In this document: piece after piece, positions 1-12,000 of the stretch | How positions within the stretch are numbered: position 1 is the stretch's first letter | How the letters are laid out: every line of letters starts with the position of its first letter | Source of the DNA: an archaeon | GTDB lineage: Archaea > Iainarchaeota > Iainarchaeia > Iainarchaeales > Iainarchaeaceae | Assembly (NCBI GenBank): GCA_035289485.1 | Contig: DATDXA010000010.1 | Location: forward strand, 1 to 26,209 | Direction: 5' to 3' | DNA: 26,209 bases | Made by a program: the position numbers

Positions 1-3000
1 TTAGGGCGGAATATAGAAGGTGGGCTTAAAAGGAAAGCTAACCTAAAATCTATTCGGGCGATGAAGAAGTTAACACCTAATGATTCCTCACGGAAAATGA
101 TTAGTTAACTCAACAGCTGAGCCCACTTTTGAAATTTAAGTTTAAATGCGAGCGCAGCATTCAAATAGACTTTTCAAGCGCCTGCGCCAGATTCTCAACA
201 ACCGACTTGTCAATTTCCACGTTGCTTTTTATGAAAACGTTTATTTTCGAATTCGTGCCATCGACAAAAATTAGCCTGTAGAGCGAACCGTCATTCGTTG
301 GCTGCTCGAACAGGTAACTTTTTGTGCCGATGGTGTACTGTGCAGATGATTTGCGGAAAAGCTGCTGCTCATATTGTATCGCCTCATCATCAAGCACTTC
401 AACGGCTGTCTCTTTGTTTGGCTGCTCGAGCACATAATAGGTGACCTGGGAAACATTGCCATTTTTCAAAAAACAGTTCGTGGACTGGAATGTCTGGCCA
501 ACAGCTGGCGGACTCTTTACCAATGTATATTCAGTGCCTAACAAAGCAATCACATTCCTTGCAATAATTTCATCGTTGCACAGAATCGGGGATTTCACGA
601 CATTTGCCATCACGGGCGGCTCTGTTTGCTGCCCGGAGCCTATGGGAGGTGCAGGCTCGGCAATATTGTAGTTTACAAAGACATTTTCGTCTTTAGGGGA
701 CTGTTTCAAGGTGCACCCTGAAAGAAGCAAAATCGCTGCAATAGCGGCAATAATGAAATATGATTGTGTGTGATTTACCATGCATTATTCTTATGCGAAA
801 ACCCGTTTATATTGATTGCGCAAAATGGAATTTCGGAAAAAATTCACCAGTTCAGATTAAAAAGGCAAAGAGCAATCCTTATTCTACTGCAGCAAGGTGC
901 TGGTAAAATGCGGTTCAAATATCTCATCGGCGGAGTGCTAACAGAAATTTACAGGGCACTACGAATTTTTCCGAACTCCGACCCTATAATGGGGTTTATT
1001 CTCCCCGCTGCAAAAAACGAGCCGCTGTGGAAAGCCCCGCTGTTCGCTTTCACAACAATGTTTGCATTTGATATTTTTACAAGCGGAATCGGGACTTGGA
1101 CTTATGTAACGAGCACAATGTACGCTCTCATCGCCCTTGCGTTCACATTTTATTTCAGAAACAAAAAAGCGTCCATTGCAGGTTACATGAAAGCCGGCGC
1201 TGCGGGAGTTCTCGTGTTTGACTTCATCACAGGCCCGGTAATGAGCTCCGCACTCTTTGGGCAATCATTTGCACTTACGCTGCTTATGCAGATTCCCTTC
1301 ACCATAATGCACTTTGTTTCTGCTGCATTTGCAATTGTTCTCATAACTCCATTCCTTGATGTGCAAATCATGAAGGAAATGGCAGGATATATAAACGCGG
1401 CAAAATACGCACTGCTAAGCCGGAGGATACAAACATGAAAAAAATGGTGATTGCAATGGCAATGCTTGTGCTTTTGCTTGGATGCTCTTCGCAAATGCAG
1501 CAGGTGCAGCAGCCACAAATGCAGAATGTTGCTGTGGATATAAAGCTCGTCAACAGGGACTCTGAAACACTCTATGAAAAGCAGATAACAGTGCAGAAAG
1601 GCAAATCACTATTTGAAGCAATGATTGAGAATTCCGTTCCGTTCGAGTACAAGGAGTTTTCCTTTGGAGTGATGGTAACAAGCGTTGCGGGAGTATCTCC
1701 TGGCAGCGAGGAATACATCGCAATTTACAAAAATGGCAAATATGCAAGTGCGGGAGTTAAGGATTTTAAGCTTGATGAGGACATGAATGTTGAATTCAGG
1801 CTCGAGGAAATAAAGCCGCCGGCATAAAGCGCAAAAGCGCCTTCTTCTAAAAGCCGGCCTTGCCAAAAACCATTAAAAATCCCGCCAGCCCCAATAAATA
1901 GTCCAATGATGATTCGAGATTTCTGAGCTGTGAAAAGGATGCTGAGACTGGTTCGAGCTGAGGACGACCTGATATACACAGTTTAGATTGTTCTTTTATA
2001 TGCCAAAAGAGGCAATCTGAACATGAAAAACGATGCACACTACACCCAAAAACTCAGGGAAAAAGTGCAACAATCCAGCTGGCCCACAGAAAAAAAGAAC
2101 GCCTTTTTGGACTACCAAAACTACTTGGAAGCCACAGGCAAAAGCGCGCGCACCAAAACCCTCTACTCCCTACACGTCCACCGTCTGGGAGAGTTCGCCC
2201 CAAAAAAACAATTCGCAAATTACACCGACAAGGACATCATGGCATACAAAACCAAGCTATCCGAGAAATACGCGCCCAAAAGCGTGCATTGCGAAATGCT
2301 CGACCTCATAACCTTCCTCAAATGGCACATGAAGCTCGAGGGAAAACCCGAATGCATGAAATGGTACGATGTCAGCGAGCAAAACAAAAAGGTTGTGAAA
2401 AAACTGAACCCCAAGGACGTTTTAACGCCCGAAGACATTCTCGCGCTCGTTTCCTCATGTGGAAGCAAACGAAACAAAGCCATTGTATTCTGTTTATGGG
2501 AATCGGGCTGCCGGATACAGGAATTCTTAGATGTCCTCGTGGATGACCTGCAAATAAGCGAAAAGGTTGTTTCCGTTTGGATTCGCAAAGGAAAAACCCG
2601 CGAAGCTGAAAGGCAGGTATTTTTGATTCAATCCGCGCCCGCATTAATGGACTGGCTCGCCGAACATGAATTTAGAAAAAACAAAAACGCAAAACTATTT
2701 TTTTCCATGGGCAACAAACAACCCGGAGGCATACTGCACCACTCAGTAGCTTCCAGTATTCTTTCAAGAGCCGCAAAAAAAGCCAAAATCCAAAAGCCCG
2801 TGAATCCGCACGCACTGAGAAAATCAAGAGCCACTTTCATGGCACAAAAAGGTTACGGTGACCAAATGATGCGGCAAATGTTCGGATGGAGCGCAAACAG
2901 CCCCATGCCAAGCTTCTACTCCTCGCTATCAGGCGATGCCGTGAAAATGGCGCTCATGCAGGATGCGGGAATAATCAAGAAAGAGGAAACGGGGCAGGAG

Positions 3001-9000: not shown

Positions 9001-12000
9001 CGCGTGTCCATTGGCTGCCGATAAATTCGCTTCCCGTTTCACTTGCGATTATACCAAGCGATGACCAAAAGCCTACAGATTCACCGCTCTTGATTACCGC
9101 GCTTATGTTCTGCGAGGTTATAGGATAGCCTTGTGATTGCAGGGCTTTTGTCGCGGCTGTTTTTTTTGATTCTTCGGATATAAAAAAACTTGTCAAACCC
9201 TGTATTCCTGATAAACCAAAACGTTGTCCCATTCCAAGCAAATCGTCTCCTCCGACTTCAGGGCGTATGATTTCGCTCGAAATCACTTTCCCTGTTTCAT
9301 CCACCGATTGATTAATGCGACCTGAAAGACCGGTGCTTATGGATTCGGAATGGTATGTTTCCAGCACTCCGAGCCTTTGTTCTCTTTGCCCGCCAAGTAT
9401 TTTTTGCAAAGTTGTTGCTTCGCTTTCTTTTGCCCCCTGCGTTGCTGTTGCACCCCACAAATGCAAACCAATCCCAGTGCCATAAACAGCCCCACTTTTA
9501 ACAGAACCGGGCACACGAGAAACAACCCCGCCACCTTTTTGAATTGCCCGTTCTGTCGTTTGAACTGCAGCAGTTCCACCCGGAACGCGAGAAGCAACAC
9601 GCGAAACCACAGGAGCCGCGCGTTCCAACAACCCGGCTAAACCGCCAACTAAAAATCTTACACCTCTGGCGATAGGATAAACAGAACCGGCTTCCGCGGC
9701 CATGGCAGACACCGGTCGACCTATGACAGCATCATATTGCGCCCGTTGTTCTTTAGGAATCAAACGTCTGGCTTCCAGTATCGGCCCGATAATAGGAACG
9801 TTTCCACTTGTCCCGATTTTATCTTGCGTGTTCGCAAACTGTTGATAAGCTGTAGCTCCAAGACCTCCGAAAATGCCATAATCCTGTTGCGGTTTTTGAA
9901 TTTCTACCTTGCGAACAGGAGCCGGAGTTATTGGCGCTCTTGAAACCGGTTCTGTGGGAATATTTCTATTAACCAAGCTAGCCTGAGCCTGAACCTCCGC
10001 AGGAGTAGGCGCAACCGCACCCCCACCCGAAGAACCGCCACCGCCGCCGTATCCGGCAAAATGTTTTTTTGCGGCTTCAGGGCCTTGTTGCCAAAAAACC
10101 TTTTTAGTTTCATCAAATTGCTTTTGAGCTTCTTGCCTCGCTGCTGATTGCCGAGCGAGAGCAGAAGCCGCCGAGTTAAGCTGGGCTTGCGTTGCCATTA
10201 ATCGCACCTCGTTTTATTTGCTTCAAAGTATAATTTTGCTTCCTGCGTGCCAATACTCCAAAAGATATTCCGAGTATCCTCGTATAATGTTTTTTGGCAC
10301 GTTTGGGGAAGATTTTGGTATGCCACAGAATCAGGGATAGGAATTACTACGGCTCCAGCTGCGCTTACAAGCATGAGAACCCCGGCGAGAATTAGCGCCG
10401 GGTTCATGTTCCCGCCCCGCTAACGATTATTTGTTTATCCTGCACGCGCCATGTGAGCTTTTGCCCGTTTATGTCCGTGCGAAGCCCCAAGAGGTTCACG
10501 GCGAAGTCATAGGGCACGCTGACTTTGAAATACTTGCGACCCTTCGCCTTTGAGAAAAAAACGCTGGTTTGCTTTTCCATAAAGAAGGTTGCTAACAGCC
10601 GAGAATAAAAAAACAATGGGCTATAAGGTTAATGAAAGAACAAAAAACTAAACTGTTGGAATCTGGCGCGTTTTAGGTTCGAGCTGAGGACACATAATTC
10701 AGATGCCATTGTGAAATAAATGCGCCGAAAGCGGATTAGCTCTTTTTATGAAAATGGATAAAAAGAAATTTTTGAACCGAAGGTCATTTTCCGCCAAAGA
10801 GTCCGCCAAGCCGCCCCATGTTGAAAAGGTCCGAGAACTTGCTTGATTCTTCCTCAAGCTGCCTTGACTGCTCATCAAGCGCCGCAAGTGTCTCTTTGTC
10901 ATCAACACCGCTCGCCTCAAGCTTTGTCCTTATTTCCTTAAGCTTGTCAGCCCGCACACGCACCTTTGCCCCATAGTCGCCATCGCCGAATAAATAGCTC
11001 ATGAAACCGAGTTTTTCCTGGTCCTCTGCGGTTTTTTCGACCGTGTCCCCGAGCTGGTTTGCAAGGGCGGGGTCGTCATCAAAAAGTCTTGCAAGGGCGC
11101 CCTGGAAGTTGTCTGTGGCTATCTTGTCGGCTTTTATAACGCCAAAGCGCCTGCACATCTGCGAAACTACCTGTGAAGCCAGCTCTTCCGGATTTTCAAT
11201 CGATGACTGGCAGCTGCTTGCCGCGTCCTGCTTGGCTGAGCAGTTCACTGCTGCCTCTGCCCTGCACATTGCCATGCGCAGCTTCACAGAGCCCAAATCC
11301 CCAATTGCCCTTGAAGCCTCCTGCTTGCACCTCACTTTCATCCTCTCAAACTCGCCTGCCGGGGGACCGCCCTGCTGCGGGGCAAACTGGTCAAGGAGCT
11401 CATCATCGCTCATTTCGCACATCTCTTCCGGACTTGGCCCCGGAGGCCCGTATCCGCCCTGCTGCGGGGGCTGCCCATAATTTTGTTGGTCCGGGCGTTG
11501 GTAACCCTGCTGCTGGCCGTAATTGGGCTGGCCCTGGTTTGGCCCATACTGCTGCCCGGGATAAGGCTGATAGCCTTGGCCCTCAAAGCCCCTTGGCTGC
11601 TGGCCCGAACCATAAGGCTGCTGGCCAAAATCAGGGCCTTCAGTTCCACTGCCAGGCACATAGCTAGACCCTGCACTTGGGAGAACATCTGTGGAGGATT
11701 GCTCTGAACGCTGCACCTCTGTGGAGCTGCCAGGAGAAGATTGCGTTGAATCGGCCTCTTCCAAATTGCCTACTGTAAAAAACCCTGTTGCCGGAAATAT
11801 CCTCTCCATTATCCTTTTTGCGGCGGTTTCAGCGGGGGAATCCTGAGCCGGAGCCTGTTCAGGCTCTGGTGCAGGCGCTGGCTCTTGAGGCGGTGCCACA
11901 GTTTCCTGCGGCTGCGGATTTTCTGAGGGTGTCTCCTCCTGCTGTGGCGCCGAATCTTCATATGGCGCATCCTGCACCGGCATTGGATAATTTTCTTGTG

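Follow-up and report, generated by a model that had tools for sequence, protein, structure and literature searches.

A probable integrated element with its own tyrosine integrase at a box C/D sRNA gene of an Iainarchaeota genome

Genes for tRNAs are the usual docking sites of integrative elements. The locus analyzed here raises the question of whether a box C/D sRNA gene can take that part. The window, i.e. the whole stretch analyzed, comprises positions 1 to 26,209 of contig DATDXA010000010.1 in assembly GCA_035289485.1 (Iainarchaeota; G000 below), a genome of 1,156,387 bases; the family set holds 23 genomes and the phylum set 215. The host is a tiny groundwater archaeon. An earlier note had proposed that the window contains an integrated mobile element using the 3' end of the sRNA gene as its att site. 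This proposal was supported and strengthened by comparative data: the best explanation as a whole, to which we assign a probability of about 0.85, is that an element integrated at the sRNA gene by means of its own tyrosine integrase, and that this gene is a recurrent docking site.

An exact search located the 16-nt repeat GGTTCGAGCTGAGGAC at 1950-1965 and 10676-10691, both on the plus strand, where the earlier note had placed it. The whole genome holds these two copies only, and no third match with up to two mismatches was present within the window. By chance, about 6e-4 such 16-mers would be expected between the ~120 nt upstream of the integrase and 20 kb downstream. The repeat was absent among the 20 largest of 48 repeat families and was recovered by the exact search. 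In the left copy (attL core), the final 8 nt of the D guide are followed by box D and by the 3' half of the sRNA's terminal stem; the right copy (attR core) duplicates this 3' end with no box C upstream of it. The core is just 16 bp long, which counts against the main reading. The left arm (1966..2022, plus strand) begins with GACCTGAT, a motif that junction comparison showed to be common to element-side junctions in relatives, and carries a T-run and a TATA-like TTTATAT ahead of the integrase start. The left region shares 82% identity with the G012 locus over 89 nt, the similarity extending ~26 nt beyond the sRNA. The right arm (10560..10675, plus strand) ends with GGCGCGTTTTA directly before the core, and its near-core motif resembles TGCGTTGTTTT, which precedes box-C-less copies in relatives. 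A mis-join does not explain this arrangement, because both junctions recur on an independent metagenome contig of 102.9 kb and on Logan contigs from other runs.

The left chromosomal flank contains a DUF4430 gene (1435..1827, plus strand; Pfam DUF4430, E 1.7e-8) and, upstream of it, a 224-aa gene (764-1438); both retain their position by the sRNA in relatives. The right flank (10692..12823, minus strand) consists of a 92-nt spacer and a 679-aa low-complexity gene (10784-12823) conserved in the family, with homologues of 33-58% identity in G016, G001, G006, G018 and G020. The block between the flanks had been described as GC-richer; at 48.4% it does exceed the genome (46.4%), the left flank (43.7%) and the right flank (45.4%), but the contrast is weak, as a neighbouring chromosomal gene reaches 55%.

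The gene adjoining attL (2023..3252, plus strand) encodes an intact 409-aa tyrosine integrase with a C-terminal zinc-ribbon extension. It starts 57 nt past the sRNA stem and, in agreement with the earlier annotation, matches Phage_integrase (E 1.3e-19) as well as SAM_4 in Pfam and the phrog_1 integrase in PHROGs (E 7e-23). Alignment to XerA (4a8e) showed that the catalytic R, K, HxxR, W and Y are kept. The protein is not the XerA of this genome: it scored 107 bits with the XerA model against a cut-off of 220, and a separate XerA-like gene lies on contig C43. With one copy of the core included, bases 1966-10691 would make up an integrated 8,726-bp element that entered by site-specific recombination catalyzed by this integrase. 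Recombination would have joined an attP immediately ahead of the integrase gene with an attB that comprises the final 16 bp of the chromosomal sRNA gene and corresponds to the attL core described above. Since attP would contain these 16 bp as well, the sRNA gene would be rebuilt intact at attL with its own promoter, and the box-C-less copy would remain at attR. Relatives of the integrase occur in 126 of the 215 phylum genomes; such elements are therefore common in DNA, whatever has been described.

The cargo includes an AAA+ replicative-helicase-like protein of 502 aa (4274..5782, plus strand) with Walker A GDFSTGKS and Walker B LVIDEGD motifs. Its layout comprises an N-terminal beta domain, the AAA+ motifs, a winged-helix-like part and a C-terminal zinc ribbon. 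The fold is MCM/NrS-1-helicase-like, at a sequence identity to the structural matches of 9-16%; Pfam detected neither MCM nor any other helicase family. In contrast to the NrS-1 phage primase-polymerase, whose C-terminal helicase region (PDB 6k9c, 6lrb) it resembles, the protein itself contains no primase domain, whereas many of its 624 relatives do, as had been noted before. Since the element brings its own replication helicase, it would be an integrative plasmid or small provirus and not a passive island. Three small ORFs of 142, 67 and 99 aa precede the helicase gene (3255..4277, plus strand) and matched no family at E<=0.01 except noise. The 99-aa ORF holds a CxxC pair. The 142-aa ORF had been labelled wHTH-like, for which Pfam, PHROGs and NCBIfam gave no support; a 37%-identical homologue adjoins a shared module at locus L140. 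Six further small ORFs (46-146 aa; 5743..7467, plus strand) gave no family matches. A minus-strand module (7604..10616) encodes proteins of 70, 69, 743 and 120 aa and gave no useful match among solved structures, families or Atlas. The 69-aa ORF has an N-terminal hydrophobic helix, the 120-aa protein has two hydrophobic helices, and the 743-aa protein is a Gly/Ser/Thr-rich orphan with a single non-self relative (54% identity). At a guess, this module possibly encodes structural or membrane proteins.

Insertion polymorphism was observed at the site. One contig of run X3 passes from the sRNA through position 1965 into ACATAATTCAGATG, which corresponds to window positions 10692-10705, giving an empty-site junction represented by a single junction 31-mer in this one run. 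Furthermore, in G001 the sRNA and the right-flank gene lie 0.8 kb apart on the same contig, a cross-genus synteny with 0.8 kb of extra DNA. These observations bear on whether the block is instead a fixed, defective island, left by a single ancestral integration and no longer mobile, with the repeat as a relic. Such an island would account for the decayed versions seen in relatives (integrase fragments in G011 and on G009:C42, integrase-less segments in G012, G007 and G020) and for the failure to find a circular form: an attP junction was found neither in the MAG (no third core copy) nor among the Logan contig ends listed, and IMG/VR gave no match to either arm-plus-core string. We nevertheless consider it unlikely, since the repeats are identical at 16 of 16 positions, the integrase is intact with its catalytic residues, every ORF of the 8.7-kb block is open, and run X3 holds attR contigs together with the empty-site junction. 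An element of this size is also absent from the 22 other family genomes, in whose examined loci no homologue of the helicase or of the 743-aa protein was found.

Among related archaea, this sRNA gene recurs as an integration site, which is the new observation here. Integrase relatives of 47-65% identity were found near this sRNA or copies of its 3' end in two other genomes. Directly 3' of the sRNA lie a 60%-identical relative cut by the contig end (G009:C12) and two fragments with 48% and 65% identity (G011:C13), and on G009:C42 a 47% N-terminal fragment precedes a box-C-less copy by 2.9 kb. The remaining relatives in the phylum were 25-38% identical among the matches listed. Eight genomes contain copies of the sRNA 3' end that lack box C. 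In four of them the copy follows the intact sRNA in the same orientation and on the same contig, at 8,726 bp in G000 (16/16 identical), 1,168 bp in G012 (16/16 with the variant of that genome), 2,518 bp in G007 (15/16) and 1,504 bp in G020 (14/16). The cargo between the sRNA and the copies includes DUF1801, Fic, PIN, OmdA, VIT1/DUF211, AAA_14/DUF4143 and DndB. Evidence from G015 is ambiguous, because its downstream sequence resembles both the right flank of the window and the element end of G011. The best explanation is that in this family, which is Diapherotrites/Iainarchaeota-like according to named homologues, the sRNA gene has gathered integrase-bearing elements and integrase-less derivatives with cargo.

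A different reading of the locus is an integron-like dock, in which the sRNA 3' end is a primary recombination site, an integrase acting in trans captures and shuffles short modules that are delimited by sites derived from the sRNA and carry a conserved arm, and the 8.7-kb block is one large captured, non-autonomous module. Stacks of box-C-less copies 0.6-1.2 kb apart that enclose single cargo genes (three copies each on G022:C11 and G019:C87) fit this reading, as does a ~110-nt right arm with a palindrome, whose conservation across four genera (72-87%) exceeds that of the cargo. This arm is, however, not recognisable in the right arm of the window element, and the block has its own intact integrase beside attL and its own helicase, like integrative plasmids and proviruses. 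Moreover, the arm-bearing block on G009:C42 still holds an integrase fragment, so the short modules can equally be read as deletion derivatives or tandem integrations. We therefore regard a cassette dock as quite improbable and prefer integration of an autonomous element.

The sRNA gene itself (1901..1965, plus strand) scored 90.1 bits with a covariance model, which found one full copy in 19 of the 23 family genomes (E<=1e-10) and matches in six genomes of three other families (E<=1e-6). It consists of the 5' stem GTCC (1901-1904), box C ATGATGA (1906-1912), a 10-nt D' guide (1913-1922), box D' CTGA (1923-1926), a 12-nt loop, box C' ATGCTGA (1939-1945), a 12-nt D guide (1946-1957), box D CTGA (1958-1961) and the 3' stem GGAC (1962-1965). 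Box C lies one base earlier than the earlier note stated. A strict dual-guide pattern matched once in the genome, and its reversed control did not match. The C' box is UGCUGA in most genomes, another point against the main reading, and the canonical TGATGA in G002, G003, G004, G151 and G152. The terminal stem is 94-98% paired, with seven variants and compensatory changes in 3/4 and 4/4 pairs, and its covariation score was reached by none of 500 shuffles. A putative box A/TATA-like promoter element, ATTAAAAA (1872..1879, plus strand), lies ~25 nt upstream. Relatives have TTTAAA at the matching position, and N. equitans is described, in the available part of PMC3491384, as having a box A TTTAAA 26 nt ahead of small-RNA starts. 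Using tblastn, left-flank homologues were located upstream of the sRNA in G012, G001, G019, G011, G015 and G014. A previous report of no Rfam hit holds at gathering scores, but sub-threshold full-length matches to sR2 (23.4 bits, E 0.23) and sR41 exist. Shuffled guides equalled the real ones against rRNA in 1/300 (G021), 13/300 (G005), 36/300, 44/300 and 90/300 trials, so that an rRNA target is only tentative. It is very improbable that the sequence is some other conserved non-coding element or a DUF4430-operon transcription signal with C/D-like words, as the missing Rfam family, the tentative target, the atypical 10-nt D' spacer and 12-nt D'-C' loop (both of which count against the main reading) and a fold energy no better than shuffles (z -0.26) might suggest, because the four boxes are correctly ordered and the D guide measures 12 nt, the covarying stem lies immediately outside boxes C and D, a promoter-like box precedes the gene in every genome compared, the D guide stays constant whereas D' changes, the gene also occurs away from DUF4430 (G007 and G009), fibrillarin and Nop5 genes for the C/D RNP are present, and low folding energy is not expected of C/D RNAs.

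Among archaea, integrative plasmids and proviruses with non-suicidal tyrosine integrases insert at the 3' part of tRNA genes, as described in the accessible part of a review (PMC8371274). The window element resembles these in that its integrase gene adjoins attL, its short direct repeat coincides with the 3' end of a gene for a small stable RNA, the target gene would be rebuilt with its own promoter (and presumably expressed), and decayed elements accumulate. In addition, tRNA genes adjoin 8 of 28 loci of more distant relatives of the window integrase in the phylum, all eight upstream of the integrase gene and on the same strand. The target here is instead a box C/D sRNA gene. Targets named in the available texts of that review and of a Thaumarchaeota survey (PMC6563490) are tRNA genes, protein genes and intergenic regions, and the words sRNA and snoRNA occur in neither text. 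Among the RNA targets in the ProBord survey, which bacteria dominate, tRNA accounts for 74.8%, ncRNA for 13.5% and tmRNA for 11.7% (PMC13626063, main text); C/D box guide RNAs are not mentioned in that text, and its supplements may list ncRNA types. The bacterial prophages and islands in tmRNA and other ncRNA genes are similar in that the conserved end of a non-tRNA small RNA gene serves as the target of a tyrosine integrase, but the host here is a DPANN-type archaeon and the RNA a methylation guide. The SSV-type "suicidal" integrases of hyperthermophilic archaea, according to the accessible part of PMC7253208, are likewise tyrosine recombinases of small plasmids and viruses targeting small RNA genes; they have the att site within the integrase gene, and this gene is split when they integrate, whereas the window element has an intact integrase gene with the att site 57 nt ahead of it. 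In these archaea, a guide-RNA gene probably takes the docking role otherwise typical of tRNA genes.

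The chromosomal gene beside the integrase gene lies at 1901–1965 on the + strand. A 5' stem strand, GTCC (1901–1904), and a single A precede box C (ATGATGA, 1906–1912), which is followed by a 10-nt D' guide, box D' (CTGA, 1923–1926), a 12-nt loop, box C' (ATGCTGA, core TGCTGA), the 12-nt D guide GACTGGTTCGAG, box D (CTGA, 1958–1961) and the 3' stem strand GGAC (1962–1965), which pairs with GTCC; boxes C and D thus lie near the 5' and 3' ends, respectively. Archaeal C/D guide RNAs have spacers of about 12 nt between C and D' and between C' and D. The D guide is 12 nt long and almost invariant in all genes compared, and the variable D' guide measures 10 nt in the window and 10–12 nt in relatives. 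Boxes C and D are unchanged in all 13 aligned genes. Box C' reads TGCTGA in the window and most relatives and the canonical TGATGA in five related genomes (G002, G003, G004, G151 and G152), of which G002 and G003 have a compact D'–C' loop of 4 nt. TTCGAG is found in both guides of the window gene (1913–1918 and 1952–1957), and because it contains the palindrome TCGA, the two guides could pair in the predicted fold.

A DNA search of the family genomes showed that the sRNA segment is 79–89% identical in 15 of 22 other genomes and is conserved far better than the adjoining protein gene. A covariance model built from 13 copies detected the complete gene once per genome, at E ≤ 1e-10, in 19 of the 23 family genomes. 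The model also matched 25 of 151 genomes in an order-wide sample, and six of the 25 order-sample genomes matched at E ≤ 1e-6 represent three other families. The four-pair terminal stem is paired at 94.2% in 13 family sequences and at 97.9% in 12 sequences that include distant ones, compared with 19–69% at slid-position controls. Compensatory double changes affect three of four pairs in the family set and all four in the set including distant sequences; the two sets score 0.519 and 1.068 for covariation, values that none of 500 shuffles attained. Seven stem variants were found: GTCC/GGAC, GCCG/CGGC, GTTC/GAAC, GCCA/TGGC, GCTG/CAGC, CCCT/AGGG and GCCT/AGGC. A TTTAAA-like box lies ~25 nt upstream of the sRNA in every genome, which fits the box A ahead of N. 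equitans small-RNA genes described in excerpts from PMC3491384. A strict dual-guide C/D pattern matched the genome only once, at this gene, and the reversed genome not at all. The host encodes the C/D RNP proteins fibrillarin (266.5 bits) and Nop5 (202.1 bits) on contig C34; the closest named fibrillarin homologues come from 'Candidatus Diapherotrites archaeon' (58–72%), in agreement with the lineage placement of the earlier note.

Given this layout, the conservation, the covarying stem, the upstream box and the RNP genes, we call the gene a C/D sRNA by architecture, that is, a predicted RNA outside the described Rfam families. The proposal of an unannotated box C/D sRNA gene beside an integrase was therefore borne out, with the boxes in place. 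The accompanying statement that Rfam gives no hit is true at gathering scores, although sub-threshold matches are present, the best being sR2 at 23.4 bits (threshold 42), followed by sR41 at 17.6 bits (threshold 54). Among the runs listed as carrying this DNA, none was an RNA run. Weak second matches to our model were seen at G019:C19:118–199 and G010:C185:725–790 (39.6 and 35.4 bits). The former has a degenerate box C (ATAAGGA) with C', guide and box D intact, and could be a duplicate in decay or else an extended att remnant. The sRNA gene of G014 is split at the att core (C79:1–56 and C27:14503–14521), one contig ending and another starting within the core, a pattern that a branch of the assembly graph at this point would produce.

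The 16-mer GGTTCGAGCTGAGGAC, which comprises the end of the sRNA gene, occurs twice on the + strand, at 1950–1965 and 10676–10691, and these direct copies are set 8,726 bp apart. No third match was found in the window, allowing up to two mismatches, or, as an exact copy, in the 1.16-Mb genome; the exact 16-nt repeat seen earlier to bracket the block is thus confirmed as the sole two copies in the genome. The att core is duplicated at both ends of the element, the full sRNA being kept at attL and a copy of its 3' end without the upstream box C (hereafter a box-C-less copy) standing at attR. Both junctions were recovered in a separately assembled 102.9-kb metagenome contig (99.99% over 13,249 nt) and also in Logan contigs of other runs; therefore, the arrangement is not an assembly artefact. 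The element was also described as GC-richer, and at 48.4% it does exceed the genome (46.4%) and its flanks (43.7% and 45.4%), although a neighbouring chromosomal gene reaches 55%, which leaves composition a weak argument. The right-flank gene (10784–12823, − strand) has 55% GC and contains internal repeats (CCGCCCTGCTGCGGGG twice, plus 29-nt repeats); its product, a low-complexity protein of 679 aa, is without family and has homologues in five family genomes.

The site is polymorphic. In the metagenome run X3, one contig passes from the sRNA through 1965 directly into ACATAATTCAGATG, which equals window positions 10692–10705, and in the same run 10705 is the end of one contig and 10676 the start of another. 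This set is what a de Bruijn graph would give if occupied and unoccupied sites coexisted, the empty site being represented by one junction 31-mer. Furthermore, G001, which belongs to another genus, has a right-flank gene homologue on the same contig as the sRNA, at a distance of 0.8 kb from it. This 31-mer and this single genome of another genus point, thinly, to an unoccupied attB in the population and in relatives. G015 was left uncounted as an empty site because its downstream sequence resembles both the right flank of the window and the end of the G011 element. As for a circular or attP form, the MAG contains no third core copy and no joint appeared among the contigs listed, which drop rare variants; exact searches of IMG/VR returned no match to the core joined to either the right arm of the window element or the arm of the relatives.

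The integrase gene (2023–3252, + strand) encodes 409 aa in an intact frame. The protein matches a Pfam tyrosine-integrase family (E 1.3e-19) and phrog_1, and alignment to P. abyssi XerA (4a8e) showed that the catalytic R, K, HxxR, W and Y are retained (GCRIQE, KGK, HALR, GW and FY), so that the tyrosine integrase reported beside the sRNA stands. A role as the XerA chromosome-resolution recombinase was considered: the protein scores 106.9 bits against an NCBIfam equivalog cut-off of 220, and a better XerA-like gene (201 + 61 bits) is located elsewhere in the genome, on C43. That match (C43:1323–3353, loci L053 and L055) is split into model positions 1–221 and 220–262, ~1.2 kb apart, within one stop-free 703-aa frame, and the gene looks like an intein-containing XerA. 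In an SSV-type suicidal integrase, att lies inside the gene, which is split on integration; the window integrase is whole, and this type was rejected because the att core lies outside the gene, 57 nt upstream of its start. A reading of the sRNA 3' end as a tRNA half was ruled out since the would-be T-stem is not complementary, and no tRNA or tmRNA was found within the window.

What the analysis chiefly adds to the first reading is the repeated use of the sRNA site. A tblastn search with the window integrase revealed two genomes in which relatives immediately follow the same sRNA on its 3' side. On G009:C12, the relative is 60% identical over aa 8–159 and truncated by the contig end; on G011:C13, two fragments (aa 3–93 at 48%, aa 97–187 at 65%) indicate an apparently broken gene, followed by a DndB-like gene. 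An N-terminal integrase fragment (47%) was also found on G009:C42, where a box-C-less copy follows 2.9 kb downstream. Integrase relatives at E ≤ 1e-15 occur in 126 of 215 phylum genomes; beyond G009 and G011, those among the matches listed are 25–38% identical.

The core pattern was then located at 26 places in 14 of the 23 family genomes: 12 are full sRNA ends, 12 are box-C-less (one, G004:C30, doubtful) and two (G014:C27:3276 and G011:C28:34009) are chance matches inside a homologous protein gene. Looser scans added box-C-less copies in G007, G022 and G019. In four genomes, a box-C-less copy lies downstream of the intact sRNA on the same contig and strand: at 8,726 bp in the source genome G000 (16/16 identical), at 1,168 bp in G012 (16/16, ending in GAAC, this genome's own variant and the counterpart of its GTTC 5' stem), at 2,518 bp in G007 (15/16) and at 1,504 bp in G020 (14/16). 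Stacks of three box-C-less copies are present on G022:C11 and G019:C87. The enclosed genes (DUF1801, Fic, PIN, OmdA, VIT1 with DUF211, and AAA_14/DUF4143 with HTH_40) are cargo typical of islands.

The DNA around these copies is also shared. A common motif, TGCGTTGTTTT (window version GGCGCGTTTTA), lies ahead of box-C-less copies, and an arm of ~110 nt with the palindrome AGGCAATTGCCT precedes those in G007, G009, G012, G019 and G020, with 72–87% identity across four genera. Element-side junctions after the intact sRNA start with G-N-CTGA(T) in G000, G009, G010 and G012 and with the variant GCCTGGAT in G007, and chromosome-side junctions after box-C-less copies start with ACA or ACT. At least six genomes retain the 5' side of the sRNA (the DUF4430 gene and a 224-aa gene), and the 3' side is variable, as at tRNA-linked islands.

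More distant integrases were examined for their targets. Eight of 28 distant integrase loci have a tRNA gene upstream of the integrase and in the same orientation, at six of them within 400 nt, and a pattern search detected C/D-like genes beside none of the 28. The T-arms of those tRNAs (GGTTCGAATCC and GGTTCAAATCC) resemble the sRNA core (GGTTCGAAC and GGTTCAAAC), a likeness between sequences that suggests, without proving, a possible route of target switch. At the tRNA-linked integrase loci L090, L092 and L108, from other families, the motif TTCAATCGCC follows just after the tRNA genes and is common across families, which suggests a second family of related elements using tRNA-Asn and tRNA-Ser. 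A pattern scan of the genome contigs revealed no close integrase relatives, and a metagenome scan gave nothing beyond a longer contig that carries the same sequence and one mosaic, the 7.6-kb metagenome contig L140, which shares just 292 nt (96%) with the window, over the integrase zinc ribbon. In L140 (5391–6076), the last 95 aa of the window integrase recur at 96% identity behind an unrelated N-terminal part of 200 aa. Next comes a homologue of the 142-aa ORF with 37% identity, and the gene of an AAA_25 ATPase is found upstream. This mosaic shows that modules are exchanged among elements.

Of the other element genes, the one for a 502-aa protein is the most informative. The protein has Walker A (GDFSTGKS) and Walker B (LVIDEGD) motifs, and no family of its own was found in Pfam, PHROG or NCBIfam; it has 624 relatives at E ≤ 0.001, many of them fused to Prim-Pol, zf-CHC2, PriCT_1 or Toprim_2, in line with the primase fusions noted earlier. 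A replicative AAA+ helicase is our best reading, with the activity inferred. A 32-nt piece of the Walker B region (4822–4853) is common to another, deeper contig in all four runs (2 mismatches in X2), probably a related helicase gene of another element from the same habitat. Nine-nucleotide repeats of the CCGCTACTACTGCTAC family at 5573–5664 encode a Thr/Ala-rich linker of the 502-aa protein and give spurious miRNA-family matches on both strands; loose contig ends in run X4 (ACTACTACT...) fall here, which suggests that the repeat run varies in length. Small hydrophobic proteins are encoded in the minus-strand module (7604–10616) together with an orphan of 743 aa, for which one relative other than itself was found; the module provided no useful family, structure or Atlas lead. 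Queries of viral contigs with the 743-aa and 502-aa proteins found no related elements. That no capsid or conjugation gene is recognised continues to hold: Pfam, PHROGs and NCBIfam gave no capsid, packaging or conjugation signal for any element ORF, nor did a PDB sequence search and the ESM Atlas for the 743-aa protein.

The D guide was scanned against 23S and 16S rRNA. In C/D guides, the base to be modified faces the guide nucleotide five positions upstream of box D. The best 23S site for each genome's own D guide, TGCGAGCCAGTT (= UGCGAGCCAGUU), is identical in all five relatives with assembled 23S rRNA and lies ~63 nt 5' of the sarcin-ricin loop. We take it to be helix 93, beside A2602 (E. 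coli numbering). Under the fifth-nucleotide rule, the methyl group would fall on the A of UGCGA, a candidate position. The match was equalled by one of 300 shuffled guides in G021 and by 13, 36, 44 and 90 of 300 in the others, so that it is clearly better than shuffled guides for G021 only; 16S rRNA was no better than shuffled guides as a target. The guide variant of G021, GGTTCGCA, lengthens the pairing with the candidate site to 13 bp, and the variant GGCTCGAA (G155, G069 and G156) turns a G-U at this site into G-C. Exact complements of the guide 11-mer gave four scattered non-sRNA matches in the family genomes and none within rRNA. The 23S target is thus a tentative lead only.

Integration would most likely proceed by the mechanism familiar from tRNA-targeting elements. 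A circular form would carry attP (right arm, 16-bp core and left arm) just upstream of the integrase gene, and the integrase would swap strands at a position within the core common to attP and the sRNA 3' end. The resulting attL would rebuild the sRNA behind its chromosomal promoter with box C, both internal boxes and most of the guide, and the displaced sRNA end would stay at attR; excision is likewise inferred. Later deletions might strip the integrase, leaving arms and cargo, or further elements might integrate in tandem.

A broader joint reading, to which we assign roughly one chance in four, is that a tyrosine integrase clade switched from tRNA genes to the gene of a ribosome-modification guide RNA, the switch being possible because the 3' part of the guide (GGTTCGAA) looks like a tRNA T-arm (GGTTCGAATCC). 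The guide-RNA gene would since have turned into an integron-like dock, which gathers whole plasmids or proviruses and short cargo cassettes bearing the conserved 110-nt arm, with exchange across genera. Each arriving element would bring the last 8 guide nt, box D and half of the kink-turn stem; since incoming elements would supply the guide end, they would evolve jointly with a guide directed at the 23S rRNA peptidyl-transferase region and could rewrite it.

In the text available for an archaeal tyrosine recombinase review (PMC8371274) and a Thaumarchaeota survey (PMC6563490), the targets are tRNA genes, protein genes and intergenic regions, and the words 'sRNA' and 'snoRNA' do not occur. In the main text of a large provirus survey (PMC13626063), as far as accessible, non-coding RNAs make up 13.5% of RNA targets and guide RNAs are unnamed. 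The abstracts and excerpts retrieved on box sRNAs with integrase or integration contained no sRNA att site of this kind. We rate the finding as a known integration strategy extended to a new class of target gene and to a new host lineage.

The ends of small stable-RNA genes are classic integration targets of prokaryotic mobile elements, and those recorded in archaea are tRNA genes, protein genes and 'intergenic' sites. With a guide-RNA gene as target, some 'intergenic' archaeal att sites may in fact be unannotated small RNA genes. The integrase and its 16-bp core offer a concrete pair for probing what suits an RNA gene for docking, and box-C-less sRNA ends provide a marker for islands in the fragmentary genomes of uncultured archaea. 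In this little-known DPANN lineage, a snoRNA-like guide RNA gene can take the role of a tRNA gene, repeatedly and across genera.
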